From: Geosiphon pyriformis uo1
Taxonomy: Eukaryota; Fungi; Glomeromycota
NCBI GenBank assembly: GCA_016748015.1
Contig: JAAOMT010000503.1
Span: 335,669 to 398,898, forward strand
DNA length: 63,230 bases
Direction of reading: 5' to 3'
Numbering within the stretch: the first letter of the stretch is position 1; each line of letters starts with the position of its first letter. Made by a program: the position numbers and the translations under genes. Below, piece by piece: positions 8,105 to 36,500 of this stretch. The notes under the pieces were generated by a model. The model was not told where the DNA came from. It did no database searches and saw only the letters and a list, made by a program, of their open reading frames with translations.

Positions 8105-8417
8105 CATCTGATATATCCGGCTATCAGTGCACTCAATAAATTTCGGCCATAACAGAATAGAATTCAATGAACTTTTAGTGAAAAAAACTTGGTTTTAATA
8201 TTACAACAATTGTTGGTATTTAATTTTTAAACACTTCCAACTATTAAAAAAATATTAAAAACACATTTATATTAGCACTAACTTTTTTGATTTTTAACAA
8301 TAAGGAAAACATTTTTGTTTTTATGTTGAATTTAGAAATATATGATTTATTTGTTTATATACAAATATAGTCAAATATAAAATTACCAAAAAAACAATAT
8401 TAGTTATTAAATGTTTT

Positions 8418-11400
8418 TTTATTATGATTATTGCTTAATGAGTGAAATTCAAACACTGCTTAGTTTCATACATCAAAAAAATGATCTATACTAGGTGTAA
8501 ATCATGCATTTTCTACACATGACCAGCCACTCAGGCCAATCAAAACAATACTATACAGCTATATAAACCAAAACCAGATTACCTATGTCAGAAAGAAAAA
8601 AACCAGACTGGCAAAAGCCAAAATATATGTCAAAAGTCTCATCAATGCTGAGTAATTTAACCACACCAGCAGAAAGTCCTAAAGCCAAACCAAAAACTGA
8701 AATGGAAGCTAAATCATCAAGAGAAATCAACACATTCTTCTCTATATAGGCACAATATTTGATGCTGTTATCCAAGTAGAAAAACTGATCTGAAGTTATG
8801 AAAAAACATAACCAGAACATGACATAACACAGAATAGTGTACAATAATATTGAATAAACATGTTATAACTTACGATAATGCAAGATAATATGTTACAATG
8901 TGGGATAACACAGAATAATATTAGATAACATGTTATAACATAGGATAACTAGTAATAACATAGAAAAACAAAGCAATAACAGAAATAACAAAGCAATAGT
9001 TAACAATAATGAAACAATCAGAAGCAATCCTGTAAAACCAAAAGAATGTATAAAAGCAAGTAGTAATAAAAAATAGAAAAAAGAACAGATAAATACAAAT
9101 CATTAAACAAGAACCGAATATCCATACCCCTCTTCATTTATTATATTCTCTATTTATCTTCTAAAATAAATCAATTATTAAGAAATCAAAATTATGAATT
9201 CATGTTCTTAAACTGCAAGGAATTTACATGAATTAACCATTGTTCCATATCTTCATTCCAGGACAGATGCTCTTAGCATAACCATCTTGAACTATTAATG
9301 ATTTGGACCAATCACTCTTGATCATGGCAATTGACAATACTAATTTATCTTTTCTTTTCTTTTTTTTTTCTTTCTTATTTTTTGTTTGTGAAGCAGCAAC
9401 ATAGTAAAATCGACTGTTTGAAAATAAACTTTGTGATAGTCTGGTAAAAAAGAGAGGCTCTCCTTAGGTTTTGGATATTAACGTCATCTTGTTAGCTTAC
9501 CAAAAGGGCAAAAAGACAATACCAGACCCTAACAACTGTGCTTGTTAACTCAAAGAAGAAAGCTCACATTTACAGAAAACATTGCAAACAACAAAAGACA
9601 AACTCTGTGTCTTATAACCAAAGAACTCAACAGATAAGTTCACATCTAGGAATAGATTTTTAGAGACTGATAATTAAGACTAAGCCAATGGAATTACATG
9701 GAAGACATATCACCAATAATTGAGAGCACCAAACGTTATCATTTCTATTACCCAGCAAGTTACCTGTAACAGTGCAGACCAACCAAATATCCTCTCTAAA
9801 AGCAAGGCTAAGAGAACACACAAATCTAACAACTTTCAAACTAGCAATCTTGGAGATCATGGAAAACAGACACAGTTTTGCAAAACCAATTATTAAAGAC
9901 AAAGCCCTTATAAAGAGCCATAAATACAAAAGAACCAGAAACACAAGATGACAACAACTATAATACACTTGAAGAAGAATGAGAGAAACCAAAAAGTGAC
10001 TTTCAAGAATTTACATAAGAGTCCAACAACTGACACCAAGCAGAATTATCAATCTTACAAGAAAACACATGATTTGACATTTTCACATTACCACAATATA
10101 AGCACAAAACACTAGAATAGAGTCTATTATAGAGACACTTCTGAATGGCTACAAGCAGATGATAATGCAAAGCCTTCATGAAATAAGTACATGCATTAGC
10201 TGATGGTCTGCTAGTAAAACCAGTGGCCATGTGCAAATCAAGATGTTACACCAATAAAGAGCAAAGCCAATCAACCTTAGAAAGCAAACTACTTGTCAAA
10301 AACTTAGAGCCAGAACCAACTTCCCAATGTGCATGACAAATGAAACAAAAAATATCACGAATAAAGTGTCAAAAATTGCCAGAACAATACTACTATCAGC
10401 CATCAAGAAATGTTTACTTAAGCAAAAGGGAAGAAACCGACCAAAAAAAAAAGTGGCACCAGTAATTGTGTTGGCACACTCATTTCCTGAAACACCAGAG
10501 TAATCTTTTATCTTGTGCCAACTAACTCTCAGATTCTTATCATGAATAACATTAATAATATGCCAATGCTCAACCCAATACTGATTATAAAAATTAAGAC
10601 AAATCAGATCTAATTCTGACCTACAAGCATCCAAAGCAGACTGACTATCTGAGTATAAGTGAACAGAGCTAGATGAGGAAATACACTCCAAGGCCAATAC
10701 AATAGCTTGCATTTCAGCCAAAGTAGACAACATCAACTTTGATATACTGATGCTTAAACCCAAATTAATGTCTTTGAAAAAAGCAGCAGTACCAGCTTTA
10801 TAGCTGACTGTGCCCAAATTCTTAGAGACTCATCCATATACACAGACAAACTACCAGTACCAATTTGAGAAAGATGCTTACAAACAGACACATAATTACT
10901 AGAATCAAAAATGTTCAATGGGCTAATACTACTTGAAACCATGGGAGGAGTAGGAGAAGAGAGTGAACTAGCAAGAAATGCAGCAAAAAGCTTAAACCAC
11001 TCAGAAACAGAGCCATGGAGGTCCAATCTTTTCCAATGCTTAAAAGTGTACCAGTCAAAAACAGGACTGTGACAATTATGAAGCTGTTCCACAAAGGCAA
11101 TACCATACCACCAGAGAGAAAAGAGGAACTTGTAAAATTTTGACTCACCCAAAATGGCAAACATGAGCACTCTATTACAAAACCAAAAAGAACTGGCCAA
11201 AGAACCACTTAGAGACAAATTGCAATCAAGAAAAATACAAATCATGCCCACCAAAAAGTTATTAGAAGCACTGACATGAATACAAACAGGAGAACTTAAT
11301 GGATGAACAGGATGCCAACACAGAACTTGCAAGTCATGAGATCTATAAAAAAATAAGTAACCCAAAATTCCAACAGAGTTCATAAAACAAACAAGGAAAG

Positions 11401-12002
11401 CAATCTTACTTTCAGACTGAACTTGCAAAAAGGATTTTAAACCATAAAAGACAAAGTAGTGAATCATATTACCAGGAAAATCAAAAAACAGATTAAACTT
11501 AAGCTTTAAGCTCTTATGAATCAGAGCATTCTACTTGTTGCATATACTAACAGGAACAAAGCTAAATTGCATTCTGTAGCTAACTATAGGATGGAGAACT
11601 GCCAATACCAAATACAAAAACTGCTTATCTGAGATGGTTTTTTTCAGAACCAAATTGGCAAAAAAACAAATGTTCAAATGCATCTTAGCCAAACTAGGCT
11701 TTAAAAGACCCTCAATAGAAAAAAAAATACCCAGATACTAATAAAACTCACCCTTTTTGGTGATAGAAATAGGTGAGTCATTGATAGAAAGAAAAAAAAC
11801 ACTGACCCTACTATTGATGAGAATAGTTATCATCTTGTCATTGTTGATTGAAATGTCATTAATCCAAAAAAATTTACTAACAACATTGAAAATATATTAA
11901 GTAGCACTCTGATTGTTACCAACCCAAATTATATCATCAACAAAGACACCAGCAGTGAAAAAAGAAGAAAGTCCAGCCTGAGATTTAATACAACTACTGC
12001 TG
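8418..12002 (-). mobile_element. 5'-truncated LINE (RT end, RNase H, C-terminal CCHC, 3'UTR), interrupted by solo LTR 8766-9771
   Basis: Degenerate ORF2 pieces (AEMQAIVLALECI..SDSQSALDAC; CLYCGNVKMSNHVFSC); perfect 12-bp TSD ATTAAATGTTTT at 8406-8417 and 12003-12014. Confidence 0.9.
8766..9771 (+). mobile_element. Solo LTR, third family (C), 1006 bp
   Basis: TGTTA...TAACA termini; 4-bp TSD ATGC/GTGC; splits the LINE codons WLVC(T)|KYCAY; shares CTCTTGATCATGGC and CTGGTAA/GCTTACCA motifs with the other LTRs in the opposite orientation. Confidence 0.85.
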
Positions 12003-12134
12003 ATTAAATGTTTTAATATTAAATTTTAACTAAAATATTTTGTTTTTAAACCAAATCAACATATTTATAATTTTAAATAAAACAAAAAATTTAACAAAGT
12101 GTAATTTTTTTTACTATAATTTTATAAAATATAT

Positions 12135-14410
12135 ATTATTATTATTATTATTATTATTTTTATCTATTTTAATAAGTAAGATCCAAACACTGCCTAGTAT
12201 AATATATCATACAAATGATCTAAACTAAGTGTGAATTATGCATTTTCTATACATAACCAGCCACTTAGGCTAGTCAGGACAACACTAGGCACTTATATGT
12301 ACTGAAACTATGTTACTTATATCTAAAAAAAATAAACAAAATTTACAAAACCCAAAACTAATACCAAATGCATCTGCAATACTCAACAATCTAAACACAC
12401 CAGCCAAAAGCACCAAAGAAAGACCAGAAATTGAAACAGAAATGGAACTATCATGTGAGATCATGCCATCTTTCTCTATAATAGCTCAGTACTTAGTACA
12501 CACTAGCCAAACATCATTATGAAACACAAGACAAAACTTATGCACAAAGACTACAATATGCTAAGCCACAATTTTAGAGTCTTTAAAAACAGCAACAGAT
12601 TCACGATATTACTCCTTGAAAACAAAGCTCTTACACAGAGCTGCACCAACAACAATATTAGAGATGCAAGTAGAAAGCAATCTCGAAACACATAAAGAAA
12701 AATAAGATAAACCTGAGCATGCCCTCCAAGCAAATACATGAATTTTCACTAATTGAGCATAACCAGCAGCATTAAATGGGCAAGAAAACACATGGTCTGA
12801 GATTTTAACATCACCGCAGAATAGACATATTACACTGAGGTAATTCCTATTATAAAGACATTTATGTACAGCAACCAGAAGACAATAATACAATGCCTTC
12901 ATAAAATATGTCTGAAAATCAGCAGTCTGAGTATTAGTGAAATCAGCAGCCAAATGAAAGTCCAGATGCCACACCAAAGAAGATTTGAACCAATCAACAT
13001 CAGCATGCAGACTATTTACTAAGACTTGGGAACCAAAACCAATCTCTCAGTGCGCATGGTGAACAGATTAGAAAACTATGAACAAAATGCCTAGAATTAC
13101 TGGACACTGCAGTACTACCAATTCTGAGAAAATGTTTATCAATCATATGAGAAAGATGCATATCAAAGAATACAACAGCTTTCATGAAAGCATCAGCATG
13201 TTTATTGCCCGAGACACCAGAGTGACCTCTAACTTTAACCCAATTAACATCCAAATTCTTGTGATAAATAACATTAGCAAAGTGGCAATGCTTGATCCAA
13301 CACCAATTCCTGAAATCCAGATGAGTCAACATGGATTCTGATTTGCATGCATCCAAAGCAGCTTGGCTGTCCGAAAACAAATTGACTGAACAAGAAGAAG
13401 GAACACATTCAAAAGCCAGAGCAATAGCCTACAACTCTACCATAGTAGAAGAAACCAGCCCAGACATTCCTACACCCAAACTTAAATCAATGTCCTTGAA
13501 AAAAACAGCAGCACCAGCTTTCATATCAAGAGTATCCAGCCCATTTAAAGAACTATCTATAAACAAAAAAAGATAACCAGAATCAACCTCCAATAGACAA
13601 TCACATACAACTCTAAACTCACAAGACTCAAAAACATTAAATGAACCAACATCTGGCAACAGAAGATTGCAAATAGAAGATGACCCAAAATCATTCAGAA
13701 AGTAAACAGAAACATTAAACCAATAAAGAACCAGGCCTTGAGGGTCTAATCTTTTCCATTGCTTAAAAGTCTTCTATTCAAAAACAGAACCAGTACGATT
13801 GCGAAGCTGCTCAACAAAGGCAATTCCATAATGCCAAAGTGAAGAGAAACATTTATAAAAGGTGGACTCACCAAGAACAACAAACATAAGGGTTCTATTC
13901 TGAAAACAAAAAGCATTGGTTACAAGACCACTCAGAGAAAGGTTGCACCCCAAAAAAATCCAGACAATGCCAGCCAAAAAATTATCTAAAGGATTGATAT
14001 TGATATGAAAAGAGAAAAACAGAAGGTAGTAAGGGTGTCAGCTGAAAACCTGCAAGTCATGTGATCTATGCATAAACAAATGACCCAAGATATTAACAGA
14101 GTTGACAAAACTAACAACAGAAGCTAACTTGCCTTCAACCTGAACCTGTTCAAAAAACTTCAAACCATACAGAGAAGAGTGGTAAACAGCATCATTGAGA
14201 AAGTTGAGCAGCAAGCCAGATTTGGATTTTAGACCCTTGCAAATCATAGTGCCCTATTTTACACACACATTAATAGAAACAAAGCTGAACTGAATCCTGT
14301 AGGTAATAATGGGGTGAAGAACTGCTGACACCAAATACAAGAACTGTTTGTTAGAAACAGCCTTTTTCAGCATGAAATTGGTAAAAAACTAGACATCCAG
14401 ATGAGCTCTT
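12135..14410 (-). mobile_element. 5'-truncated LINE (RNase H, CCHC, 3'UTR, (TAA)n tail)
   Basis: FSDSQAALDAC..WVKVRGHSGVSGN; CLFCGDVKISDHVFSC; (ATT)n run at 12135-12157; same 3'UTR as the other copies. TSD not clear. Confidence 0.85.
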
Positions 14411-16321
14411 ATTATTTTTGTTATTTTAAAATATTAATTATTATTATTATTATTATAAATTAATACTTAATATTATTACAAATTGGTAATTATTATTATG
14501 TAAATTTTTTTTATTTTAAATTATTATTGTATTTACAATATAATTACAATAATTATAATTTAATTTATTTATAACTTGTTATTTTTTAATTAATAATATT
14601 AAATACAATAAAATTTAAAAAATATTTTAATAAATAAAAAACAATTTTATAATTAAAAATTAAATAATTCAAATTTTATAATTTATAATAGTATTACTAA
14701 AAAACTTTTATTAAATATAGTTTTTTCTTAAAATATTAATTTTAATAATAATATTATTAAATTTTTAAAATCAAAAATAATAATTATATATTTTTGTTAA
14801 TAATTTTTTTATGTTTTAACAAATATAATCTAATTATTAATTATAATATAAAAAAACTAAATTAAAATTGAATTTTTTTTTTATTGCTTTATAAATGAGG
14901 TTCAAACATTACCTAGTATTATACATCAAAGAAATAATCTAAACTAGACATGAATCATGCATTTTCCACATGTGACCAACCATTTGGGCCGATTAGAACA
15001 ACACTATACAGCTATGTGAACTAAAACAGAGTCACTTACATCTGAAAAAAATAAACAAGATTTGTGAAAGCCAAAATAAACACCAAAAGCATCGGCAATG
15101 CCAAGCAATTTGACCACTCCAGCCAAAAACTCTGAAGCCAAACCAGAAATTGAGACAAGAACTGAACCATCAAGGGAAATCAATCTATTTTTTTCTATGT
15201 AAGCACAATGTTTGGCACAAACTGACCAAACATTACTTCTAAGAGCAAGACTAAAAAAGTATACAAATTTAACAATCTCCAAACCAGCAATTTTGAAATC
15301 ATGAAAAACAGTAACTGTTTCATGGAACCAATCATTAAAAACAAAATTCTTAAAGAGCGCTATAGACAAAGAAGAGTCAGAAACACACAAAGACAAAAGT
15401 TGTAGTATGCCCGAAGAAGAATAAGAAAAACCAGAAACCATCTTTCAAAAGTTTACATGAGATTTCAACAACTGTCTCTGAACAGAATTATCAATCTTAT
15501 AAAAGAACACATGATCTGAAGCTTCCACATCGCCACAATATAAGCATAACACACTAGGATATAATCTATTATAAAGGCACTTCCGAACGGCAACTGGTAA
15601 CTGGTGGTGTAAAGCCTTCATGAAATAAGTGCATGTATTAGCTGAAAGTCTGCTGGTGAAACCAGCAGCCATGTGCAAGTCAGGGTGCCATACCAAAGAT
15701 AAACAGTGCCAGTCAACCTCAGAAAGCAAACCACTCACCAAAATTCTGGAACCAAAACCAACCTTCCAGCATGTATGACAAATTGAATAATAAATATTAT
15801 GGACAAAATGTCTGGAATTGCCAGAAACCACAACACCATTAGTCATTATAAAGTGTTCACCCAAGTGAAAAGGAAAATACCAATCAGAAAAAGAAGCATC
15901 ACTAGCAATTGTGTCAACACACTCATTTCTTGAAACACCAGAGTGGCCCTTAACCTTATGCCAGTTGACCTTCAAATTCTTACTGCAAATAACATTAATA
16001 ATATAATGATGTTCAATCCAACACTGATTACGAAAGTCGGAATACGTCAAACCCAATTCTGACTTACAAGCATCCAGAGCAGACTGACTATCTGAAAACA
16101 AATTAACAGAATATAGAGAAGGGACATACTTCAAAGCCAGCACTATAGCCTGTAACTCCACCAAAGTAGATAACATCAAATCTGATACACCAACACCCAA
16201 ACCTAAATCAATGTCCTCAAAAAAGCCAGCAGCGCCAGCTCTACAGCCAACTGAGCCCAAATTACTAAGAGATTCATCTGTATATACTAACAAATAATTA
16301 GTACTAATCTGTAAGAGACAA

Positions 16322-17086
16322 TGTTACAGATAATTATTTGGGGTCTCAAGTCAAATAACAAATCCATAACTTGGTGCTTAGTTGGTACTTAGGTGTTGAT
16401 ATTTGAAAGTTTTGGTTGTGGAGTTCTTTGTATAATGGACAGAGATTTAATAGTTGTTTCAGTAGCCTCCCGGAATTGCAATTCCATCGAATTTTTTTCT
16501 TAGTATGGTGGCTGGTAATCCTTCTGGTAAGCTATTCTCAAATTTATGAGTGTTCTACCCTTGTTTCACGGATTTTTTACCAGTTCCTATGACATCTGTA
16601 TTTCAGTGCTTAATTCTTAATCAATTTAGTAAAACCAAAGAAATAACAAAAAGAAATAAAAAAAATAAAAAAAAATAAAAAAATAAACAAAAGCAATTGC
16701 AAGTTAGTATTCCATTAATAGCCATGATTAAGAGCTATTGTTCCAGCATGGTTAAGTATTAATTACTATCAACATGAAGTGTTGATAGTGGAGAGTGAAT
16801 TTGCATGGTAAATAGTTATTTATTTGATATTTGTGAATGGAAGGTTGCTTAGATCAAATCTAAACTGAGAGGTCTGTCTTTTCTCCTTCTAATACTACTA
16901 CTATATATACATAATTAATGTTCTATGAGATCACTCATATTTCTGAACAATGTGCTATGATTTCTTGAGCAATGTGCCATGATTTCTGACATTGCTCCAC
17001 ATTGCTAAGCAATGTGCTTACATATTAAATACTATTCTTTCATTGGTCTGCTATTTTCTATATCTGTTTTCTTTTTATGAGTAACA
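16322..17086 (-). repeat. 3' LTR of Gypsy family B
   Basis: Direct repeat of 29386-30169; preceded on the minus strand by a purine tract; U3 has GAGCAATGTGCT-type tandem repeats. Confidence 0.93.
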
Positions 17087-17661: not shown

Positions 17662-18438
17662 GTCTAACAGTTGTTAACTTAAGGCCTGGAACAGTTGTTG
17701 AGCTATAGTGTGAATATAATCTGGTATTTTCATTTTTTTAGTTGCTTTTGTCGCGTGTATTGTGCCTTTATATACTCTTTTGGGTTGTTTGATTTGATGT
17801 GTTTGGTTCAATAACTATGATTGGTTCCAAATTTCATAGAATCTCATCTGGTTGAACTAGTATTCTTTGTACTCCTAGTTGTGGAATGTTATTGGTGGAA
17901 GATGATGCTATCTGGTAATATGGTTTCAGTCAATTACCATATGTTGCTTTGGCTAAAATTTTGTTGTCCTATCTTAATTTATAAGCTCCATTTCCAAGAA
18001 TTTTTTCTATGTAAAATGGTCCATCCCATTTGGGGTCAAATTTTCCACTCCATTGTTTTTCTGCTTTGGTATGATATAAAAGTACTTTGTCTTCAATCTT
18101 GAATTCAATTGGTTTATCTAGTAGTTGGTTATTGTGTCTTTTTTTTTGTCTTTCTTGTGACTTCTGGATGTTATTAGCTGTTCTTTGCTGTTTATTTTCT
18201 AATGTTTTCATTAAGTCATATGTTCTTCTTAGCAACATTTCCTGAAAATTATCTTTGGTTATTGGTTCTATTGGGTAAGTGTTGATTTTTATCTTAATTG
18301 GTAATGTTGCTGTTCTACCATATACTAATTCAAATGGTGTTGCTTGTGTAGTGTCTTGTTTCATTGTCCAATAAGCAAATAATACTGATGGTATGAACAA
18401 ATCCCATTTGTCTTGGTTTTCTTGACTGATTTTGGTAA

Positions 18439-19320
18439 TGTTACAGGTGATTATTTCTGTTGTTGTATTGAATAACAAACCCATAACTTGGTGCTCAAAA
18501 GCTATTGCTGTTGATAATGTTCTGAAGATTTTGTATTTAAAGATTTTGTATTTGAAGGTTTTGGTTGAGTCCTTTGTATAACGGACAGAGATTCAATAGT
18601 GTTGATAGTAGATGTATCTTTCCAAGAGTTTTCCCAATTTCTTTCTCAACATGATGGCCGGATTTAGTCTGGCAGTCGTGCTTTTCTGGTAAGCTATCTG
18701 ATAATATATAAAATCCTACCCTTATTTCTGGGTCTTTTACCAGGCTATCCTTGACATCAATAACTCAGCGCTTAATTCTTTTACTCAATTAGTAAACAAC
18801 AAAAGAAAATAAAATAAAATAAAGAAAAATAAAAGAAAATAAAGAAAGAAAAGAAATAAGCCCAGATGGTATGGCAGATTAGTATTCCGTCAATAGCCAT
18901 GATCAAGAGCTATTGTTCCAGTGTGGTTAAGTATCAATTACTATCAACATAAAGAATTGATAGTGAGGAGTGGATTGAGATATGAAATAATTATTTATTT
19001 AATGATTGTGTTTCTAGGCTAAGAATTCTATGGTATCGATTCTGTCTTTTCTGTTTTTAATGCTACTGCTATATATACATAATTGAGATTCTTCAATTCC
19101 TCAATTCTTCATGACAGGAATCCTAGAATTCCTGGAATCCTGCAATTTCTTTGAGAAAAATTCTGGAAATCTGGAATCCTGTAATTTCTCGTCGGAGAAT
19201 CTTGAAATTTTTGGAATCCTGCAATTCCTGAAAGGAATCCTGGAATTCCACATTTATTATGCCTACTTCTGATTGGCTAATAATTAGACTAATATATTTC
19301 CTATATTTCTATGAGTAACA
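18439..19320 (-). repeat. 3' LTR of family A element
   Basis: Direct repeat of 21476-22341; GGAATCCT/GGAATTCCT tandem repeats at ~19115-19250; TATATATA at ~19070. Confidence 0.95.
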
Positions 19321-19333
19321 TTATTTTCTCCTT

Positions 19334-19612
19334 TTAATATTGAGCTCTGTCAAAATTCAACTCATGTAATTCCCCCTCTTGAAGTATTTTCTGGATTTCA
19401 TTTTTGAGAATTACTTGTGTTATTTGGGTCTGTAATTCTTCAAATTGAGCATTAGTGATTTTTCCCAATTGATTACTGGTAATCATATTCATTGCTTTGT
19501 TGCGCAATATTTCTGGTCTATCCTGAAATGCTGTATGTATTCGGTAGATGGCTTGGGCTTGTGTAGATAAGTTGTTCTTTCCCACAAAATGTTCTAATTG
19601 TTGTAGTATTCT
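19334..19612 (-). pseudogene. C-terminal half of retroelement ORF3 retained in the family A element
   Basis: RILQQLEHFVGKNNLSTQAQAIYRIH..PEIL..NFDRAQY* aligns with family B DIIQQIKEFIGKKTNSTLHVKTMYQLH..PEIL..DFDRAQY*. Confidence 0.8.
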
Positions 19613-19944
19613 TGTGCAACATCTAATTGCGTAGCAGGTTGCGTGTAATCGTCATAATCAAATGTGATAAATGCATTACTTGATGTATTCGTATTAATAA
19701 TTGGTATATATCGTATTTGTAAACTCATAAAATTATATTTATCATAAATGTCAGCTAGACCCCCGACCCAAGAAATTATAGCAGGATGTAACATAAGAGC
19801 TGTAGCAATAAACACACTCTGTTGGGATGCAATAAATCTATCAATGACAGCTGTTTTATCTATTATAATACTGGTTTTGTTTGCTAACTGGAAACGTACA
19901 CCACGAGAAACTGGTGTATTAACTGTCTGATTTCTTAAATGCAT
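19594..19944 (-). CDS. Truncated viral single jelly-roll capsid protein (S domain; tombus/sobemo/crucivirus-like), endogenous viral element
   Basis: ATG at 19944. TPVSRG arm motif, then LHPAIISWVGGLADIYDKYNFMSLQIRYIPIINTNTSSNAFITFDYD..P, matching the S-domain pattern P....W...A..Y.KY....L...Y.P...T.T.G.....F.YD. The last residues (EYYNN*) are out-of-frame retroelement sequence. Confidence 0.85.
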   Translation of the reverse strand: MHLRNQTVNTPVSRGVRFQLANKTSIIIDKTAVIDRFIASQQSVFIATALMLHPAIISWVGGLADIYDKYNFMSLQIRYIPIINTNTSSNAFITFDYDDYTQPATQLDVAQEYYNN

Positions 19945-19960
19945 TGGAAGATATGTAAAA

Positions 19961-20470
19961 TTAGAACCACCTCTCACCAAACTGTGTGGAACTGTTTGAG
20001 GACAAACTTGATATCGAACTCCCACTTAAACTGAAGCATATTGAATGTGCTGGGGTAAATTGATTGAACGTAAAACTCTGACCGAACACATGTTTTGTGA
20101 AATTACAACTGCTGCAGCATTGTTTTGCCTGTGCGTATGTTTTCAATTCGATCTTGTATTCATGGTAAACACAGTGTTTCATGAAGCCATCTTTTACCTC
20201 AAATTGACAATCGGCTGGACTTACGTTCAAACCAAAATGTTCATATAGAACCAAATTTGCTTTGATCAAATTCACGAGCTTGTTGTACACTTTGTTATAT
20301 CTTCGTAACTCTGTAGCATACTCAAAAATATCTTCAATATTTTCATCATGTAAAGTGAAGAAATGTTCTCTAAAGTTTTTGAATACAGTAACTTGTGTTT
20401 GGGCTGTTACAAATTTTTCTACTGTTGTGATTTTTTTCAAAAACTCAGTGCAGACTATTTGAAAAGTGTG
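19961..20470 (-). CDS. Unknown ORF fragment (~170 codons, no ATG), 5' part of the foreign insert; possibly viral
   Basis: Stop-free frame HTFQIVCTEFLKK...GERWF*, with His/Cys cluster HCVYH...CCSSC; no counterpart in the family B element; stop lies 16 nt before the capsid ATG. Confidence 0.5.
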   Translation of the reverse strand, partial: HTFQIVCTEFLKKITTVEKFVTAQTQVTVFKNFREHFFTLHDENIEDIFEYATELRRYNKVYNKLVNLIKANLVLYEHFGLNVSPADCQFEVKDGFMKHCVYHEYKIELKTYAQAKQCCSSCNFTKHVFGQSFTFNQFTPAHSICFSLSGSSISSLSSNSSTQFGERWF

Positions 20471-21413
20471 TTGTTGTTGTTGTTTGTTGGGGTGGTAGCT
20501 GAAGTGGCTGCTGTATGGGTTTGGCTATAAGATTAATCGGCAGTTGATCAATGATGATTACTGGAGGTAAGTTTTGCTGATTAATTAATTTGGGGTTTTG
20601 ATTTCTTTGATTTGGCGGCATTTGAATATTTGGAGTTTCAATTTCCAGATTTTCTAACTGTTGCTGAGTTTGAATGTTCAGGATTTCAACTTCCGTGTTT
20701 TCAGTGATTGGATGCTAGTAAGTGAATTCTTAATCCTCTAATTCTTCTTCCTCCTTTTCTGATTCTGCTGCTTCCCACGGATCAGAGATTCCGAAATCTG
20801 GTGGAGGCAATGGTGATCAAAGTCCTGATGGGGTTGATGATCGCGAATTAAATCTCTCAAAGTATTCGCTGTATGGTCCTAACAATTCTGTTTTCCTTTG
20901 TCTACTTTGGAATGAGAATCGTCCAAATGTTAATGTCACAGTTGATGGGAATGCATCAGTTGATGATATGTTGATGGCACTTCCAGGTGTATAGTGGTAT
21001 AATAAGTTACTTGGGGATTCAACTCTGTTTTTCTTCCAAGCAGGTGACTGTGTTTTTCGGGGTGTTACTGCTGGTGTTTGTAATTTTCTCTTGCCTTTAC
21101 TAGTGTATGTAATTGGATATCTTTGTTGAGTGTGGTGTTTAATTTCTTTGTTGATCTCAGTGATGATGGATGCAAAATTATGGTTTGTTGGTAGGTTGGT
21201 GTTTTGAATTAATTCCTTATAGAAAGTTTCTCTTGCTGATTCAGTATTCACTGGTGTTCCTAATAAAGAGGAAATCTTTTTGTTGACATAAAAATTGAAG
21301 GCTGATTCGGCGGATATATGATTGTGGTTTAATCCCAAGTATTGACAATAGTGTTGAAATAAGGATTTTGTGAATCCTAAATGGTTTGCTCCTATAATTT
21401 CTGATTCTGCCAC
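20471..21413 (-). pseudogene. N-terminal part of Gag ORF (up to the P/Q linker), CA domain absent
   Basis: MAESEIIGANHLGFTKSLFQHYCQ.. is homologous to family B ORF 28978-29325; continues through stops to QQPLQLPPQQ and breaks before the MAYA.IAKLEKF CA start seen at 28331. Confidence 0.85.
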
Positions 21414-21457
21414 TTTTGGTTTGGTGTTGTCGGTGCTGGTTCTTTGTAGGATTATAC

Positions 21458-21473
21458 TTCACAGGGAGCACCA
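21458..21473 (-). promoter_or_regulatory. Primer-binding site (family A); equivalent PBS at ~29368-29383 in family B
   Basis: TGGTGCTCCCTGTGAA 2 nt inside the 5' LTR, complementary to a tRNA 3' end (T/C)TCAC-AGGGAGC-A-CCA; tRNA identity (possibly Ile-UAU type) is inference. Confidence 0.8.
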
Positions 21474-21475
21474 AA

Positions 21476-22341
21476 TGTTACAGGTGATTATTTCTGTTGT
21501 TGTATTGAATAACAAACTCATAGCTTGGTGCTCAAAAGCTATTGCCATTGATGATGTTCTGAAAGTTTTGTATTTGAAGGTTTTGTATCTGAAGGTTTTG
21601 GTTGAGTCCTTTATATAACAGACAGAGATTCAATAATGTCAATAGTAAATGTATCTTTCTAAGAGTTTTCCCAATTTTTTTCTCAGCATGGTGGCCAAAT
21701 TTAGTCTGGCAGTTGTGCTCTTCTAGTAAGCTATCCAATAATATATAAAATCCTACTCTTATTTTTGGGTCTTTTACCAGGCTATTCTTGACATCAATAA
21801 CTTAGCGCTTAATCCTTTTACTCAATTAGTAAACAACAAAAGAAAATAAAATAAAGAAAATAAAGAAAGAAAAGAAATAAACCCAGGTGGTGTGACAGAT
21901 TAGTATCCTGTTAATAGCAGTGATTAAGAGCTATTGTTCCAGTGTGGTTAAGTATCAATTACTATCAACATAAAGGGTTGATAGTAAGGAATGGATTGAG
22001 ATATGAAATAATTATTTATTTGATGATTGCATTTCTAGACTAAGGATTCTGTGGTATCGATTCTGTCTTTTTTGTTTTTAATGCTACTGCTATATATACA
22101 TAATTGAGATTCCTCAATTCCTCAATTCTTCATGACAGGAATCCTGGAATTCCTGGAATCCTGCAATTTCTTTGAGAGGAATCCTGGAATTCTGAAATCC
22201 TGTAATTCTTCATCAGGGAATCCTGAAATTCCTGGAATTCTGCAATTCCTGAAAGGAATCCTGGAATTCCACATTTATTATGCCTACTTCTGATTGGCTA
22301 ATAATTAGACTAATATATTTTCTATATTTCTATGAGTAACA
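21476..22341 (-). repeat. 5' LTR of family A element
   Basis: Direct repeat of 18439-19320, differing mostly by transitions; followed by PBS. Confidence 0.95.
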
Positions 22342-23139
22342 GTGATTGCTTTACACAATGTTCTGTTAAATTTTTCAACTAGTCCATTGGTTTGTGGATA
22401 ATATAGTAATGATAATGGTCTTTTGATTCCAAATCTCTGACTTAATTCTGCTAATGTTCTGTTTACAAAGTGAGTTCCTTGATCTGATAATAGTTTTTTT
22501 GGACATCCATATCAACAGATCAAATCTTAATGAACGAATTCAGCAATGAATTCTGCATTTGTTCTTTAAATGGCTTTTGCTTCTGGCCATTTAGTAAGAT
22601 AATCCATAGCTACTACAATATATCTGTTGCCTCTGCTGGTAATTGTTAATGGTCTAACTAAGTCAATTCCAATGTGATCGAATGGTTGTCCCACTTTGAT
22701 TGGTCTTAATGGTTCACTGGGTTTTGTTCCTCCTCTTTTCTGACAAGCATCACAATTTTAAACATATTAGATGATGTCTGAATACATTGATAGCCAATAG
22801 TATCTTTTTCTGGTTTTTTCTATGGTTGTTTCTTTATGAAAATGTCCTGCTGTTGGGTCTAAGTGCATGTTGAATAATATTGTCTTTTTCTTTGGTTTTG
22901 TGATTACTCTGATTGGTTGATCTGGATTTCTTCTGTTCTTCTAATAAAGTATATTTTGATGATTGATAAAATATTTTGATTGTTGTTTAATGTTCCTTTG
23001 TTCCTTTTGAGATAATTTCTCCTTGAACAGTTGGGTATTTATATAATGTTGTAGTTGTTGGTATTTTTGTATATTTATCTTTTGTTATATTTTTGGTTTG
23101 AAATGTTTTTAGATTTGTCTTATTCATGATAGTCCATCA

Positions 23140-24400: not shown

Positions 24401-24949
24401 TGATATTGATATGGCCAAATTTATTTTTGCTCACAAAGATGTTATTGAAATTGTTGAGTAACATCTTTAATTGCATCTGTTGGAGTGAGTCTAGATTTCC
24501 CATGTTTATCTGTTCCAACTGCTCTGGTTGAAGCAGATAACATTCACTTCGTTCGTAAATAGTCTGTAATGTAATGTCCATATATTTGCAAAGTTGTGGA
24601 AAATCTGGAATGTGGTTTGGTGGTTAATTCTCAACTTGAGTGGTTAAATATTCAATGATAGTTCTCTTTGGTATTTTGATGACCTTTTCAGTTGTGTTAT
24701 AGATGGGAATTTTGATGTTTTGGGGCTGTTGGCTGAGATGTAGAAATTGGTGAGTCCAATCTCTCCTGATTCACAAATGGTGGCTTCTGCTTCAAACAAT
24801 TGAGCTTGATCTTTTACTTCTCTTTTTATGACTAACATATACTGGTCATATGGTGGAATAGAAATTAATTGATAGGTTGAGATAATTTTTCTTTTGTCAA
24901 CAATTTCTTTCTCTGCCATATTAACTGGTATATCTATTTTACTCATTGA

Positions 24950-25370
24950 TCTGAATCTCTGTATTCCTCTAGCTGTAATCCTTAATTTTTCCCTGTTTCC
25001 CACTAACACTAACTGCATTATTTTCACCAAAGGTAGGAATATTGCCTGTGTTATCTTTTCATTTGGATCTATGATATATGTTTTTTCTGAGTCATTTTGT
25101 AGCATAGCAATAATATTTCTTATGTATTCTGTGTTAATTATTCCTCCTCTGATGTTGATTCCTTTTTTTGCTAAACTACTTCTGGATATTAATTGAACCA
25201 TTGTTGCTGGAATTTCCAGTACTATTTTCAGATCAATGCAAGTATGCAAGTGAGATTCCAATTTGATAGGATCTTTCTCTGGATATCTCAGATCAAATCC
25301 TGCATCAGTATCATGCACACATTCAGGCATAATATCTTCATTATTATCACTGAACCATTTCAGTTCTTGC
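24950..25370 (-). pseudogene. Trimeric dUTPase domain inside the Gypsy pol
   Basis: Motifs DAGFDL (I), SRSSLAKKG (II), GGIINTEYIRNI (III, decayed G.ID..Y.G), ITQAIF (IV), RGIQRFRS (V, decayed RG..GFGS). Confidence 0.9.
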
Positions 25371-26639
25371 TCCTTGGTAAGATTAGGGAGAGTGATATAT
25401 GTTTCAGAGTTTGAATCAGAATCCGAATCATTGTTATTTTTATTGCTGTTTTGAGTGGAGCTAGAACTGGTGTTTTCATCGTCATCATTGTCAGAGTTTG
25501 AGTTAGGATTGAAAATTGATTCCGATTCTGATGCACAGTTGCTCATTAGTTCATCTTCTTCTGGGATTATGTAGATTATACGTGGTGGTGGATTGTAAAT
25601 GAGGTCACACTTATTACAATACTTGAAGTCACATGGGATCAAACAGTGGTCACATAATTGGGTGTTTATTTCTTCCAAACATTGTTCCTGTTCTTCTCTG
25701 GTGAGTGTTAATTGTTAGTAATGTTCATGGAATTCCTCTGGATTATCTTTGATGTTGCCAAAGACATCAAAAGTTTGGATGTATTCAGATTCAAGAAGTA
25801 ATAAAGGGTTGTTTTTGATTTCTAGTAGTTTACTGGTTGTCACACTTTCTGCTTTCGCATATGCCATTTTCCAGAGTTTATGTTTGTTGTAGGGATATTT
25901 TTTTAATTGTCACAACACTCTTTTTCAGGCATCATTGATTGGTATGCCTTTGCGTACCCAATCGTTGATTAGGATTGTATATTGGCACATTTCATCGCAT
26001 GTTTTTCCTCATTCAGAAATGTTGTTTCACATTTTTTTGTCTGGAAGAGTTTTTTTACAAGTTAAACATGGTGTATTATCCCATTTTCTCACTTGTTTTG
26101 GCCTTTTAAAACATTTAACGAGACATGCATGGCAATAAAACTTAGTTGCCATCTGGTATTCTTTGTCATCACCACAGCATGCACCCATTAAAAACAATTT
26201 CTTGCTGCAATCAGCACATATAAGCTTTGGTCGACAATAATTTGGTTGTGGTAGTGCATAAGTATATGCATGGTGAATGGTGATTGGTGTTGGAATTTTT
26301 TTGTTCTCTTTCTTTTTTCCTTTGTGGTTATCCTCTTCCCACTCCCAGGTTGTTGGTAGTTCATTTTGATTATTGTCAGTTCCCTAGGCTTGATCTGAAT
26401 TCCAGGTAAGTTCTTTTGTTTGTTTTCTTTTTTCTTTATTGTCCCAGGATAGTATTGGTGGTAATTTGTTGTGGTTATTTTCATTGGCCCAGGAAACTTG
26501 ATAGGCTTCCCAGGTAGGTTTTTCCTTTTCTTTTTCCAATTTGATAAGTGGAGCTGATGGCATGGTGATGGGATTTGAAATGGCCACACGTGGCTAGTAT
26601 GCATGTGTGTCGTCCGTTCTGGCTAAGCTAGAGCTCTTA

Positions 26640-27549: not shown

Positions 27550-29325
27550 TGACAATTAATTCTCAAATGTTCTTGTTTACTACAGTAGTGGCAGATATGC
27601 ATCTCTTGCTGCCACGGCTGATTAGATGATAATAAGAAACGCAACTGATTTTGTGGGTAATTTGTGATTCCTAAATTATTGCATTGTTAGGATGGTTGAT
27701 AAATTGTGTGATTGTCAGCTAAGTATCCTTCCAGCTTCTGGTTAATGGAATTACTGAATTGTTTCAATTTGGAATCTAATTCAGATGATCCATTCATCAC
27801 TAGATTTATGGCTTGGGCATGATTGGCTTTGAGTTCAGCTGCTTCAAAATCTCTGGCGTTGTTAATTGCAGCTTGAAGGTCTACTGGATGCATTGGGTGT
27901 ATGCATTGGAGGATGCTACTGTGCAGGCCTCTAATAAATTGGTTTAGGATTTGTGGCGCTGTAAAATAATCAGCCTAAATTGCTTGAATCTGGTGCAAAT
28001 TCCTATGGAAGCATCTTAGGTAAGTAGTAACTGCTTTATTTTTCCCTTGTTTGATAGTGGTGAAAGTGTTTGCTAGCCGATTAATACTATTGTTGTTGCT
28101 GAAGTATTGTAGGAATGCAAGCTTGAATGCAGCAAAATCTTGGAGTTTGTTAGCCAAGCTTTGATACCATAAATTGGCAGTATTTTGAAGAAAGTAAAAA
28201 ATGACCTGCATGGCTCTGGCATTATTCCAGCTGTTGGCTGCGATGGCTTTTTCCATATCATTTAGCCACACTTGGGTGTTATTTTCTTTACTGGTGAATT
28301 TCTCAAGTTTTGCTATCAGAGCGTAGGCCATTGGATCGACATTTGGTTGTTGCAGTTGTTGTTGTGGCTGTTGAAGCAGCTGCTGTGGTTGTTGAGGTGG
28401 TTGAAGTAGCTGCTATTGCTGTTTGTTGATTGGTGGAGCTGAATTAATCCTGATTACTAAAGGTAAGTGTTGTTAATTATTGATGTCAGGGTTTTAATTG
28501 TTCTGATTGTGCTGCATTTGGAAATTCAGAGTTCTGATTTCTGGATTTTCCAAATCTGGATTTTGTTAAGTCTGAAAATTCGGGGTTTCAATGTTTGGGT
28601 TTTCTAGGATTGGGTTCTGATAAGTAAATTCTTGATCTTCAGATTCTTTTTCCTCTTCTTCTTGTTCTTTCTCTGATTCCATTACTTTCTAGAGACTTGC
28701 GATTCCGAAATCTGGTTGGAGTGGTGGAGATTGAAGTCCTGATGGCATTGGTGATCAGAACTTAAATCTTTCAAAATACATGCCATATGGTCCTAGAAGA
28801 TTTTTTTCTTTTGTTTACTCTAAAATGGGAATTGTCCAAAGGTTGATGTCACATGTGATGTGAACGTGCCTGTTGATGTAATGTTGATGGTGCTTCTAAG
28901 TGTATAGTGATATGATGAGTTTGTTGATGATTCAACTCTGGTTTTCTTCTTAGTGGGTGGTTGTATTTGTTTTGGTGTTACTGCTGTGTTTGCAATTTTT
29001 CTTTGTCTTTACTGGCATAAGTAATTGGGTATCTTTGTTGTGTACAATGTTCAATTTCTTTATTAATCTCAGTAATGATGGATGCGAAATTATAATTTGT
29101 TGATAAGCTGGTGTTTTGGATTAATTTGTGGTAAAAAGTTTCTTTTGCTGATTCAGTGTTTACTGATGTTCTTAACAAATAAGCAATTTTTTCATTGACA
29201 TAGAAATTAAAGACTGATTCTGCTAATATCTGATTGTGGTTCAATCCCAAGTGTTGACAGTAGTGTTGAAATAAAAATTTTGTGAATCTTAAATGGTTTG
29301 CTCCTATACTTTTTGATTCTGCCAC
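27550..29325 (-). pseudogene. Gypsy family B gag (N-terminal extension, P/Q linker, CA, CCHC knuckle)
   Basis: MAESKSIGANHL..; AKLEKFTS..QVWLNDMEKAIAANSW..IKQGKNKAVTTYL; ICHYCSKQEHLRINC. Confidence 0.88.
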
Positions 29326-29385: not shown

Positions 29386-30169
29386 TGTTACAGATAATTA
29401 TTTGGGGTCTCAAGTCAAATAACAAATCCATAACTTGGTGCTTAGTTAGTACTCGGGTGTTAATATCTGAAGGTTTTGGTTGTGAAGTTCTTTGTATAAT
29501 GAACAAGGATTTAATAGTTGTTTCAGTAGCCTCTCGGAATTGCAATTCTGTTGAATTTCTTTTTCAGTGTGGTGGCCAGTAATCCTCCTAATAAGCTATT
29601 CTCAAATCTATGAGTGTTTTACTCTTGTTTTATGGGTCTTTTACCAGTTCCTATGATGTCTGTATCTTAGTGCTTAATCTTTAATCAATTTAGTAAAACC
29701 AAAGAAATAACAAAAAGAAATAAAAAAAAATAAAAAAAAATAAAAAAAATAAACAAAAGCAATTGCAAGTTAGTATCCCATTAATAGCTGTGATCAAGAG
29801 CTATTGTTCCAGTATGGTTAAGTATTAATTACTATCAACATGAAGTGTTGATAGTGGAGAGTAGATTTGGATGGTAAATAGTTATTTATTTGATATTTGT
29901 GAATGAAAGATTGCTTAGATCAAATCTAAACTAAGAGGTTTGTCTTTTCTCCTTTTAATACTACCACTATATATACATAATTGATGTTCTATGAGATCGC
30001 TCACATTTCTGAGCAATGTGCTATGATTTCTTGAGCAATGCTTATATTGCTGAGCCATGTGCTCTAATTTCTAACATCACTCCATATTGCTAAGCAATGT
30101 GCTCACGTGCTAAATACTATTCTCTCATTGGTCTGCTATTTTTTATATCTGTTTTTTTTATAAGTAACA
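29386..30169 (-). repeat. 5' LTR of Gypsy family B
   Basis: Direct repeat of 16322-17086, followed by PBS TGGTGCTTCCTGT. Confidence 0.93.
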
Positions 30170-33564: not shown

Positions 33565-36500
33565 AAAAAATCTTTCTTTTATTAATCTTTTGACTGTGAT
33601 AAGAACAAAATTTTTTTTTGAGAATATAACTTTTCTTTTCTCTTTTTTTCTTTGTCCCCATTAATTATTTTCTCAATTATACTTATTTTTATTGTGATAA
33701 AACTGACAAGCATGTCTGTTGGTGTTTCTGATTTTGGTATAACTGATTTAGAAACCTGTTTGAATGCCAAGAAAAAATGTGTAAACACTATCTACTTCTG
33801 TAGTACTTCTTACAAAAAACCAAAAAAGTCTGTAGTTAGTAATATGGTTGACTTATTTGCTGGTTTTTTAAGTTTGGAAAATGTTGATAGTGCTGGTATT
33901 GAACCTATGGTATTTTGGAGAAACAATATTAGCAGTGTTGTAAGTAATATTAATGATTTGTTAAATATTAATAATATAAAAAACACAGTTGTGGAAAAAA
34001 CAAGCTATGCTGATTTGAATGTTTTAGCAAATAATGAAAATATGGATGAAACCATGCCAAAAAAAACTCACACTCAAATATATATGCTTGGTCATCTTTT
34101 GAAAGCATTTTTGTTTATAGACATGAATGATAATAACAATATTTTGGCTCTCCTGTTCCCTAAGTTTGTTGGCACTAATTAGCTACTGTTGATCAAGTCA
34201 CATAGACTTGAAAGATGAATTTTTAAGCTTGTTAAATTGTTTGCTTTGAATGTTGAATTGTTTGCTGTGCTTAACAAAACTATTAATAATAAGTTATTGT
34301 ATATGAAAAAAAAATTTTATCAAGTAGATGGTTTTAGGGAAGCCTCTATTTCTTTGAAACTTCTTGGCATTATTAGAATTACTTTTACTTCTAAATTTAA
34401 TTTAGGTAAAGCAAAAGAAATGTTTGTTAATAAGAAAATCTTAGTTAATAATGATGTAAGCAAACCAAACAGTCATATAAATTGGGAGATAATTGTTAAG
34501 AAAATTCTAGTTGATCTTCTTAAATCAGTAGTAGAATTAATATTTACTGTTACAAGTAATTATTTGAAGTCTCAAATCAAATAACAAACTCATAACTTGG
34601 TACTTAATAGCTAGTATGATGGTGATATCTGAAGGTTTTGATGATTTAAAGGTTTTGGTTGAGTTTTTTGTATAATGGACAAAGATTTACTGATTGTGTT
34701 TTAGTAGCCTCTCAGAATTACAATTCTATCAAATTTCTTTCTCAGTATAATGGCTAGTAATCCTTTTAGTAAGCTATCCTCAATTCTATTCTTGTTTCAT
34801 AGATTTTTTACCAGTCCCTATGACATCTGTAACTTAGCACTTAATCTTTAATCAATTAGTAAACAATACAGAAACAACAAAAGAAATAAAATAAAGAAAT
34901 TAAAGAAATTAAGCCAAGACAAAAACAATTAGTATTCCATCAATAACTGTGATTAAGAGCTATTGTTCCAGTGTAATTAAGTATTGGCAGTTATTAACAT
35001 AAAGTATTGATGGTTAGAATTTGATGAATATTTTTCAATTCAATAATAACAACATAAATTGAATATAGATAAGTATTTTATTGATAATTTGATGATTTCA
35101 CTTTAGTGAATATGAACTATTCTTAAAGTGATTAGGGAATAAATAAAAAGAGAAGTCCAAATTAAGAGATCTGTTTTTTTTGCTCTTAATGCTACTGCTA
35201 TATATACATATTTAAAATTCCTTAATTCTTTAATTCTTTATATCAGGAATCTTGGAATTTTTAGAATTCTGTAATTTTTTGAGAAAAATCCTGAAATTTT
35301 GAAATTCTGTAATTCTTTATATGAGAATTCTGTAATTTCTAAAATTCTGTAATTTTTCTAAAAAAAATCTTAAAATTCCATATTTTACTATATCTATTTC
35401 TGATTGGCTATATTACTATAATTTCTATATTTTATGAGTAATATTGCCAAATTTGGTAAGGTGGTTTCAGTCAAAATACAGTTGATTAGTCTTTGACAAA
35501 AGATTATAATGAAATTTGAGTCATTAAATGTTATTAGTTTGGTTGTTTCTAAGTAGTTAATTTTTATGAAAAAAGACTTTATATATGTAACTTTGATAAT
35601 TAATAATAAGCAGTTGTGAATTTTAAGAAATTAGCATCAGACTTTATTATATACCTTGTTAGTAAGCACTAATGTCCATGATCTTTCTAGTTTGCTGGAA
35701 TTATATGATAAGAAAACATGCTTTATTGGCCATAATTTAAGTTTATATGTATGTAACAAATGTGCAGTAATTTGTTTTGCTAATAAGACATTCAAATTGG
35801 CTGCTGTTGATTCTTTGCTGGTTTTTAAGAATGTGAATTTGTGCTAAACTGGTCTTTTTCTGATCTGTTGTATTGAGTGTAAACAATTTGGTCATATTTC
35901 TAATAGGTGTTTAATTGGTGAAAATTTGGGCAGCTACAGAAAAAAAACTATCAATTCTTAGGATTATGTTTACTTGGTAAATATATATATATAAAAAAGG
36001 CTCCTATTATCTACCCAGTTTCTTTTGGTAACAAGATATGGGCTCAAGTAGTCTCACTTATTGCTTTCTCTAATAATGCTAATTCTAGTTTTGGTCTTCA
36101 TCTTTTTGTTTTTAGTGGCTCAAATGGGAAAAAAAGTGTATTGATTGTCAAAAATAGTTCATTAATTACTAATCATTTGGCTTTCTTAGAGCATTTTTTG
36201 GAGCTTTTGGAAAATCAGATTTCTGGCATAGTGTACAAACTCAGCAGCATAGAATTGGCACTTTTGGCTCCTCTTTTTTCTTTTCATGATCTGGTTATGT
36301 TATTGGTTGTCAAGTTTAGATATAGTCTTAGATGGTTCTAAGTTGTTGTTTTCATCTCCTTGTTTTATTTTCTCTAGTGTTTCAGATTTGAATCCAAATA
36401 GTTCAAAAGTTTTGACTACTAAAATAGGCTGTTTAAAGTTAAAATTGGTAACTCTCAAGATTTCTGTTGATTCAATTCTGGCAAAGTTGGATCAGTTGTG

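Follow-up and report, generated by a model that had tools for sequence, protein, structure and literature searches.

Recombinants of an intracisternal A-particle (IAP) and lymphocytic choriomeningitis virus (LCMV) have reportedly been found in mice. For the retroposition mediated by long terminal repeat (LTR) elements, with maize Bs1 and retrocopies of Drosophila and mosquitoes as examples, template switches are described that occur between LTR RNA and a co-packaged mRNA where the two share microsimilarities (PMC5408686; this and the following papers are cited for part of their text). Viral integrations in Aedes are enriched near Ty3/Gypsy elements and one lies inside a full-length Pao-Bel element (PMC5497376), and chimeric retrotransposon-virus DNA in insects has been reviewed (PMC6338049). 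Endogenous RNA-virus sequences are already known in fungi as well. In Gigaspora, a fragment of a hypovirus has been endogenized and mitovirus DNA occurs without integration, and the cited part of that study reports no population resembling PIWI-interacting RNA (piRNA) for the viral DNA fragments (PMC7082362). Mucoromycota hold endogenous genes derived from RNA-dependent RNA polymerases, and the same text describes a tymo-like virus of Geosiphon as well as tombus-like viruses of three early-diverging fungi (PMC7482067). Capsid-less fungal viruses have relatives with jelly-roll capsids (10.1101/2022.02.15.480533), and the mechanism of endogenization is called “not well understood” (PMC11351042). 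Here, we describe a window of 63,230 nucleotides from the glomeromycete Geosiphon pyriformis uo1 (assembly GCA_016748015.1, contig JAAOMT010000503.1, positions 335,669 to 398,898), which is AT-rich eukaryotic DNA consisting largely of nested retroelements. One of these, element A, holds part of a viral capsid gene in place of its own core.

Element A resembles the described cases of LTR retroposition in its foreign, partial cargo between LTR arms, its primer binding site (PBS), its polypurine tract (PPT) and the similarity at its junctions, but the cargo is a viral capsid region instead of a host mRNA, the host is likely a fungus and one copy is seen (compared with the cited part of PMC5408686). 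It shares with the insect chimeras the union of a virus fragment with a Ty3/Gypsy-type element, for which template switching has been proposed (PMC5497376, PMC6338049, in the parts cited), whereas its donor had a jelly-roll capsid of the tombus/sobemo type and the link to piRNA clusters and small RNAs is a feature of the insect cases. Like the endogenous viral elements (EVEs) of early-diverging fungi, it consists of sequence resembling an RNA virus that has become fixed in nuclear DNA; those EVEs, however, are pieces of polymerases and polyproteins for which the cited text describes no retroelement frame (PMC7082362, PMC7482067), whereas element A has a capsid together with the anatomy of a capture. 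The capture route is known, but host group and cargo were not found in the literature searched (full texts, few subscription papers, without supplements, which could list the locus), nor was a report of this locus or of any LTR-framed S-domain capsid in a fungus.

A capsid gene fragment in the frame of a Ty3/Gypsy element

The insert of element A is a genuine endogenous piece of a virus, framed by a retroelement. The locus comprises the following features, including the target site duplication (TSD) and the open reading frames (ORFs).

18439-22341, minus strand: element A, a Ty3/Gypsy-type LTR element nested in the integrase of sister element B
22342-22345: right TSD copy of element A, GTGA, one transition away from the left copy GTAA
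21476-22341, minus strand: 5' LTR of element A, 866 bp, TG..CA
21457-21473, minus strand: PBS of element A, with a TGG start after a 2-nt spacer from the 5' LTR; like the PBS of element B
20485-21458, minus strand: 5' part of gag of element A, up to a Gln/Pro-rich linker, with 3 in-frame stops (tblastx and blastn to B)
20461-20484, minus strand: 5' junction zone, a CAA-repeat tract; family copies diverge at 20484 and are similar to ~20461
19961-20461, minus strand: ORF-X, 166 open codons in the insert; 5' end cut, one base out of frame with gag
19617-19944, minus strand: N-terminal half of a capsid gene of the S-domain type, predicted jelly-roll, with 109 codons between the ATG and the junction
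19613-19617, minus strand: 3' junction; family copies diverge behind 19616
19337-19616, minus strand: 3' end of the third ORF of A's family, 93 open codons, multi-copy; weakly like the 3' ORF of B
19321-19335, minus strand: PPT of element A, a 15-nt purine tract that precedes the 3' LTR and resembles that of B
18439-19320, minus strand: 3' LTR of element A, 882 bp, TG..CA
18435-18438: left TSD copy of element A, GTAA
16322-30169, minus strand: element B, Ty3/Gypsy, with LTRs at 16322-17086 and 29386-30169 and TSD ACAA/ATAA

Positions 19597-20025 match PF00729 with an E-value of 2.6e-9 (37.7 bits against a cut-off of 23; profile positions 57-122 of 207). From the ATG onwards, 23 sequences of the PDB match at E up to 1, and the coat proteins of cucumber necrosis virus and Sesbania mosaic virus are the best among them. 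A profile of six close relatives (the clade profile) matches the window at E=2.3e-27 over positions 81-194 of 330 and ends at the junction, where the eight-stranded S domain is cut and left incomplete. This half domain scores 88 bits, compared with 43-56 bits for 12 whole outgroup capsids. An alignment-based model of the half capsid reached a predicted local distance difference test (pLDDT) value of 73.5; DSSP shows no sheet in it, the model covering half a domain only. By VIA-align, all 37 matches of the model at Z>=2 are icosahedral capsids (best Z 4.9, root mean square deviation 3.1, 89 aligned). The sequence agrees with the N-terminal half of the S-domain capsids of Tombusviridae and sobemoviruses, and the fold probably does so too. 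The original prediction had named the betaB-betaE half of such a capsid and had proposed HMMER and Foldseek as checks. The viral S-domain capsid and its N-terminal half stand on the PF00729 score, strand labels aside; Foldseek returned 0 matches for the half-capsid model. No homolog of nearly the fragment's length was found, and Rfam gave no match. A longer N-terminal arm of the capsid overlapping ORF-X was also considered (ATG 20190; stops 20181, 20145 and 20028; 88 codons), which lies in the length range of the relatives' arms (69-108 residues) but has fewer Arg and Asn.

By its sequence, element A appears to be a non-autonomous derivative of a Ty3/Gypsy element (Metaviridae), the order of the pol domains being seen only in sister element B (gag, protease, dUTPase, reverse transcriptase (RT), RNase H, integrase). 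The 5' arm is ~72% identical to B over 20547-22107, and its gag part stops short of the Gag capsid domain (in B: 27978-28412, PF03732). The 3' arm is only weakly like B, with a DNA match at 19293-19356 alone and 28% identity over 72 aa. Judged against B, element A is without pol, and an insert of 845-870 bp (19617 to 20461-20484) takes the place of a gag-pol core of ~7 kb. When TSD lengths of 3-6 bp are compared, the integrase frame of B stays open across the empty site with 4 bp only, and contigs of paralogous elements run across this empty site (joints 18434-18437 to 22342-22345). Over 866 aligned sites, the two LTRs show 68 transitions, 2 transversions and one 16-nt indel (8% diverged). Of the complete, cis-competent element that had been proposed, only the layout of LTRs, PBS, PPT and 4-bp TSD holds up; the LTRs have diverged by 8% and gag contains 3 stops, and one mismatch makes the TSD imperfect. 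Internal short repeats (GGAATCCT-type units) occur at 19103-19270 and 22124-22269, near one end of A's LTRs.

Copy number and junctions were assessed in the contigs of one run, X1 (probably DNA), compared at 85% and 80% likeness. Among the runs listed (n = 3), the stretch is present in X1 only; X2 and X3 gave 2 and 0 matching records. In X1, the insert forms a single contig of 864 nt (19611-20474) with 0 differences. Its depth of 80.3 is not a copy number, and records can be filtered out; it falls inside the ranges of 70.9-131.2 and 76.3-120.6 seen in two comparisons with 7 other long X1 pieces each. Neither end of the contig is loose; on both sides it halts where the repeats start, and both flanks are highly repetitive, with a summed depth in the tens of thousands. 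A second sequence at 80% likeness to 19636-20454 is absent from X1 and, therefore, no host source gene is seen for the insert. The insert appears to be single-copy, and no amplification was seen in this one DNA run. The original prediction thus fares well for the size of the insert (~860 bp, borne out at 845-870 bp by family copies in X1), for its sense orientation (both ORFs lie on element A's strand, between co-linear 5' and 3' arms) and for its non-host origin at this level of likeness; the extra copies for which it proposed a search did not appear in this run.

The 3' junction cannot be fixed from B because A's 3' arm is only weakly like that of B. The A-family copies in X1 place it at 19616/19617, so that 19594-19616, the final codons and stop of the “capsid ORF”, is retroelement sequence read out of frame. 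ACAA at this junction is retroelement sequence that also completes a Gln of the capsid that is invariant in its clade. It likely represents a microhomology, the donor side being deduced from the conserved residue. Brief shared sequence is present at both junctions of the insert.

The dUTPase of element B (PF00692, E=2.8e-15; 24647-25714, minus strand) is encoded between the protease and the RT, downstream of a Cys-rich stretch near 26030-26383. B's LTR pair shows 65 transitions and 3 transversions over 767 sites, and its 4-bp TSD is likewise imperfect. An LTR-like copy akin to both A and B is found at 34548-35441; its partner LTR is not seen in the window, so it is possibly a solo LTR. Other mutually related repeats, 65-74% identical and on both strands, fill most of the window (8300-16300 and 30170-63230).

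ORF-X, the relatives of the capsid and the type of donor

Upstream of the capsid, ORF-X extends from stop to stop over 19961-20524 and ends 16 nt ahead of the capsid ATG at 19944, an arrangement that is as first described. Its length is reached by 2 of 5000 shuffles, which indicates that it was a coding frame. No homolog was found for it in the searches made. The best values are E=0.043 in Pfam and E=0.023 in PHROGs, with no match to a Rep, helicase or polymerase. The Atlas gave no usable match and the viral contigs none, the two largest protein collections not having been searched with ORF-X alone. Its single-sequence model has a pLDDT of 40.8 and no Foldseek match at 0.001. Comparison with 1246 ORFs (from the window and the fetched loci) yielded nothing significant, and the same was true for the ORFs upstream of distant capsid loci. 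A match to 14-3-3 (E=0.11) was dismissed as chance, as the Pfam 14-3-3 profile gives none at E up to 1.

A full HMMER scan with the capsid fragment at E up to 0.001 returned 30 proteins, namely P0003 (a public gene model of this very locus, see below), 28 capsid-like proteins and one repeat protein (P0030), which was excluded from the capsid set as a non-capsid. The six best after P0003 (P0004-P0009) have E-values of 3.7e-13 to 1.7e-6 and are 27-33% identical to the fragment. Together with P0033 (in the cluster of P0006) and P0045, they form a clade with the fragment, with an SH-like approximate likelihood ratio (SH-aLRT) of 99 for whole proteins and 97.8 for the shared region; both trees are quick searches in which the fragment sits on a long branch. 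In these trees, the fragment does not nest with named members of the Tombusviridae or sobemoviruses but groups with this separate, unnamed clade. Its members are environmental and lie on contigs of 1216-1475 nt. The two contigs fetched (L004, 1-1473, and L005, 1-1475) carry the capsid gene alone between T-rich flanks and lack both a terminal repeat and any further long sense ORF. Such short, capsid-only contigs fit a capsid segment or a satellite; fragmentation is equally possible, since several unrelated matches lie on contigs about as long. Partner segments were sought by a 15-nt motif of the L005 end; this gave 67 loci, of which 6 short ones were checked and proved to match by chance.

The named relatives among the capsid matches are capsids of positive-strand RNA viruses. 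In the Atlas, neighbours of the clade belong mostly to Kitrinoviricota clusters; of the 10 rows shown, one is a circovirus-capsid set. Patterns of the clade retrieved no clade member from the viral contigs, only distant capsids, and the fragment itself matched none. At 11 of the 12 distant S-domain loci in the viral collection a long ORF containing GDD lies upstream, and a recognisable Rep at none (0/12). Among the viral contigs, L001, L002 and L003 (4.3 kb) likewise show a long GDD-containing ORF followed by an S-domain capsid. By eye, we take this long ORF to be narna/ourmia-like.

The probable route of capture and its alternatives

We consider it probable that a Ty3/Gypsy element, now decayed, had its core replaced by a viral fragment through template-switch capture of viral RNA, followed by a single integration. 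An RNA virus with ORF-X followed by the capsid gene would have replicated in the fungus, and its RNA would have been co-packaged with RNA of element A's family. Minus-strand synthesis may then have switched from the third ORF to the viral RNA at the ACAA match, copied ~850 nt and returned at the CAA-repeat tract of gag, thereby skipping ~7 kb. As the anatomy indicates, the integrase of the family would have put the two-LTR product into the integrase of B, with a 4-bp TSD. After insertion, C-to-T and G-to-A changes evidently accumulated, and no second copy is seen. In line with LTR-mediated retroposition, the cargo lies in sense between LTR arms with short homology at its junctions. The original prediction of viral RNA captured by RT and integrated as a chimera is supported by the capsid, the sense orientation, the co-linear arms and the TSD; the RNA genome, the fungal host, a capture that preceded integration and any role in small RNAs are presumed.

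Several observations weigh against this route. A single copy cannot distinguish capture before integration from replacement afterwards. The junction microhomologies are short and A/C-rich, and the donor-side sequence is deduced. No X1 contig spans either junction by 31 nt, the overlap with the 3' arm being just 6 nt; the junctions are not independently proven, as a bridging contig is lacking and X1 may itself be the source of the assembly. In the two relatives whose DNA was read, a counterpart of ORF-X upstream of the capsid is absent. None of the seven close relatives, on contigs of 1216-1475 nt, comes with a linked polymerase, which only distant relatives have, so that the donor genome may have been either RNA or single-stranded DNA (ssDNA).

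Alternatively, a full-length element may have inserted first, a later break being repaired from viral cDNA or RNA with deletion of ~7 kb and no passage through a particle. The single copy agrees with such a repair, brief homologies at the junctions equally fit end-joining, and non-integrated DNA copies of RNA viruses are described in Gigaspora margarita (PMC7082362, in the part cited). Nonetheless, we regard this as unlikely: two template switches would be expected to give a sense insert and a clean replacement on both sides, whereas repair should leave the orientation random, though this amounts to a factor of two only.

Cruciviruses are ssDNA viruses that use the tombus-like capsid family. 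A donor of this type, from which either mRNA or DNA was captured and in which ORF-X would be the end of Rep or another gene, is in keeping with a clade that has no linked polymerase. One NANTATTAC-type nonamer is present in L004 at 161; by estimate, about 1 in 4 AT-rich contigs would contain it by chance, and it is absent from L005 and from the insert. Given further that ORF-X matched no Rep or helicase in the searches made, that L004 and L005 show neither a terminal repeat nor a second long sense ORF, and that no crucivirus name occurs in the 29 matches whose clusters were checked (most of them unnamed), an ssDNA donor seems improbable.

An assembly artefact, which would have placed a viral fragment from another genomic location inside a collapsed retroelement, would suit the very repetitive flanks and the unspanned junctions. 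It is quite improbable, however, as the insert contig has no loose ends and stops where the repeats begin, the arms are co-linear, the TSD of the LTR pair preserves the host frame and the 3' junction falls at a conserved capsid codon. Even if misassembled, the endogenous viral element would stand because capsid sequence is present in DNA and is CpG-depleted.

Decay, function and meaning

The differences between the LTRs of A and of B are almost all transitions (68:2 and 65:3), evenly distributed over both LTRs and with strong CpG loss; dating from total divergence would, therefore, overstate the age. The CG/GC ratio is 0.65 in the insert and 0.48 in gag, compared with 1.30 and 1.24 in the coding regions of two relatives. 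This CpG loss is consistent with a long residence of the insert in the genome under transition-heavy decay. Both frames of the insert are stop-free, compared with 3 stops in gag. At the LTR rate the chance of no stop is ~0.25 x 0.32 = 0.08, which is not significant and is not evidence of selection.

P0003, a public model of 395 aa annotated as a hypothetical protein of Geosiphon pyriformis, is 100% identical to the capsid fragment. It strings together 5' LTR, gag, ORF-X and capsid, and confers the PF00729 annotation on the fungus. As a one-member cluster with a start inside the 5' LTR, it looks like a prediction artefact, and so, likely, is that annotation. The idea that selection maintains the insert, whether for a protein (half capsid or ORF-X) or for a role as new accessory gene in a mobile non-autonomous family, could call on the stop-free frames and on the joined frame of P0003, but is highly improbable in view of the lack of significance, the one copy and the nature of that model. 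Element A does not make a complete capsid, nor is any function supported.

A far-reaching and decidedly speculative extension, which we hold to be rather unlikely, is that an undescribed group of icosahedral RNA viruses, with the capsid on segments or satellites of 1.2-1.5 kb, infects glomeromycetes, with the insert as its first host record, and that Ty3/Gypsy elements make heritable, LTR-driven loci from the viral RNA, which would supply antiviral small RNAs in the manner of mosquitoes. The significance of the locus is limited by its being one decaying copy without a supported function. It does preserve the full anatomy of a likely capture (both LTRs, PBS, PPT, TSD and both junctions), which makes the retrotransposon route testable in a fungus. 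Moreover, it points to a probable host lineage of the capsid clade, which is otherwise from unnamed environmental contigs only, and suggests that such fungi encountered encapsidated icosahedral viruses.

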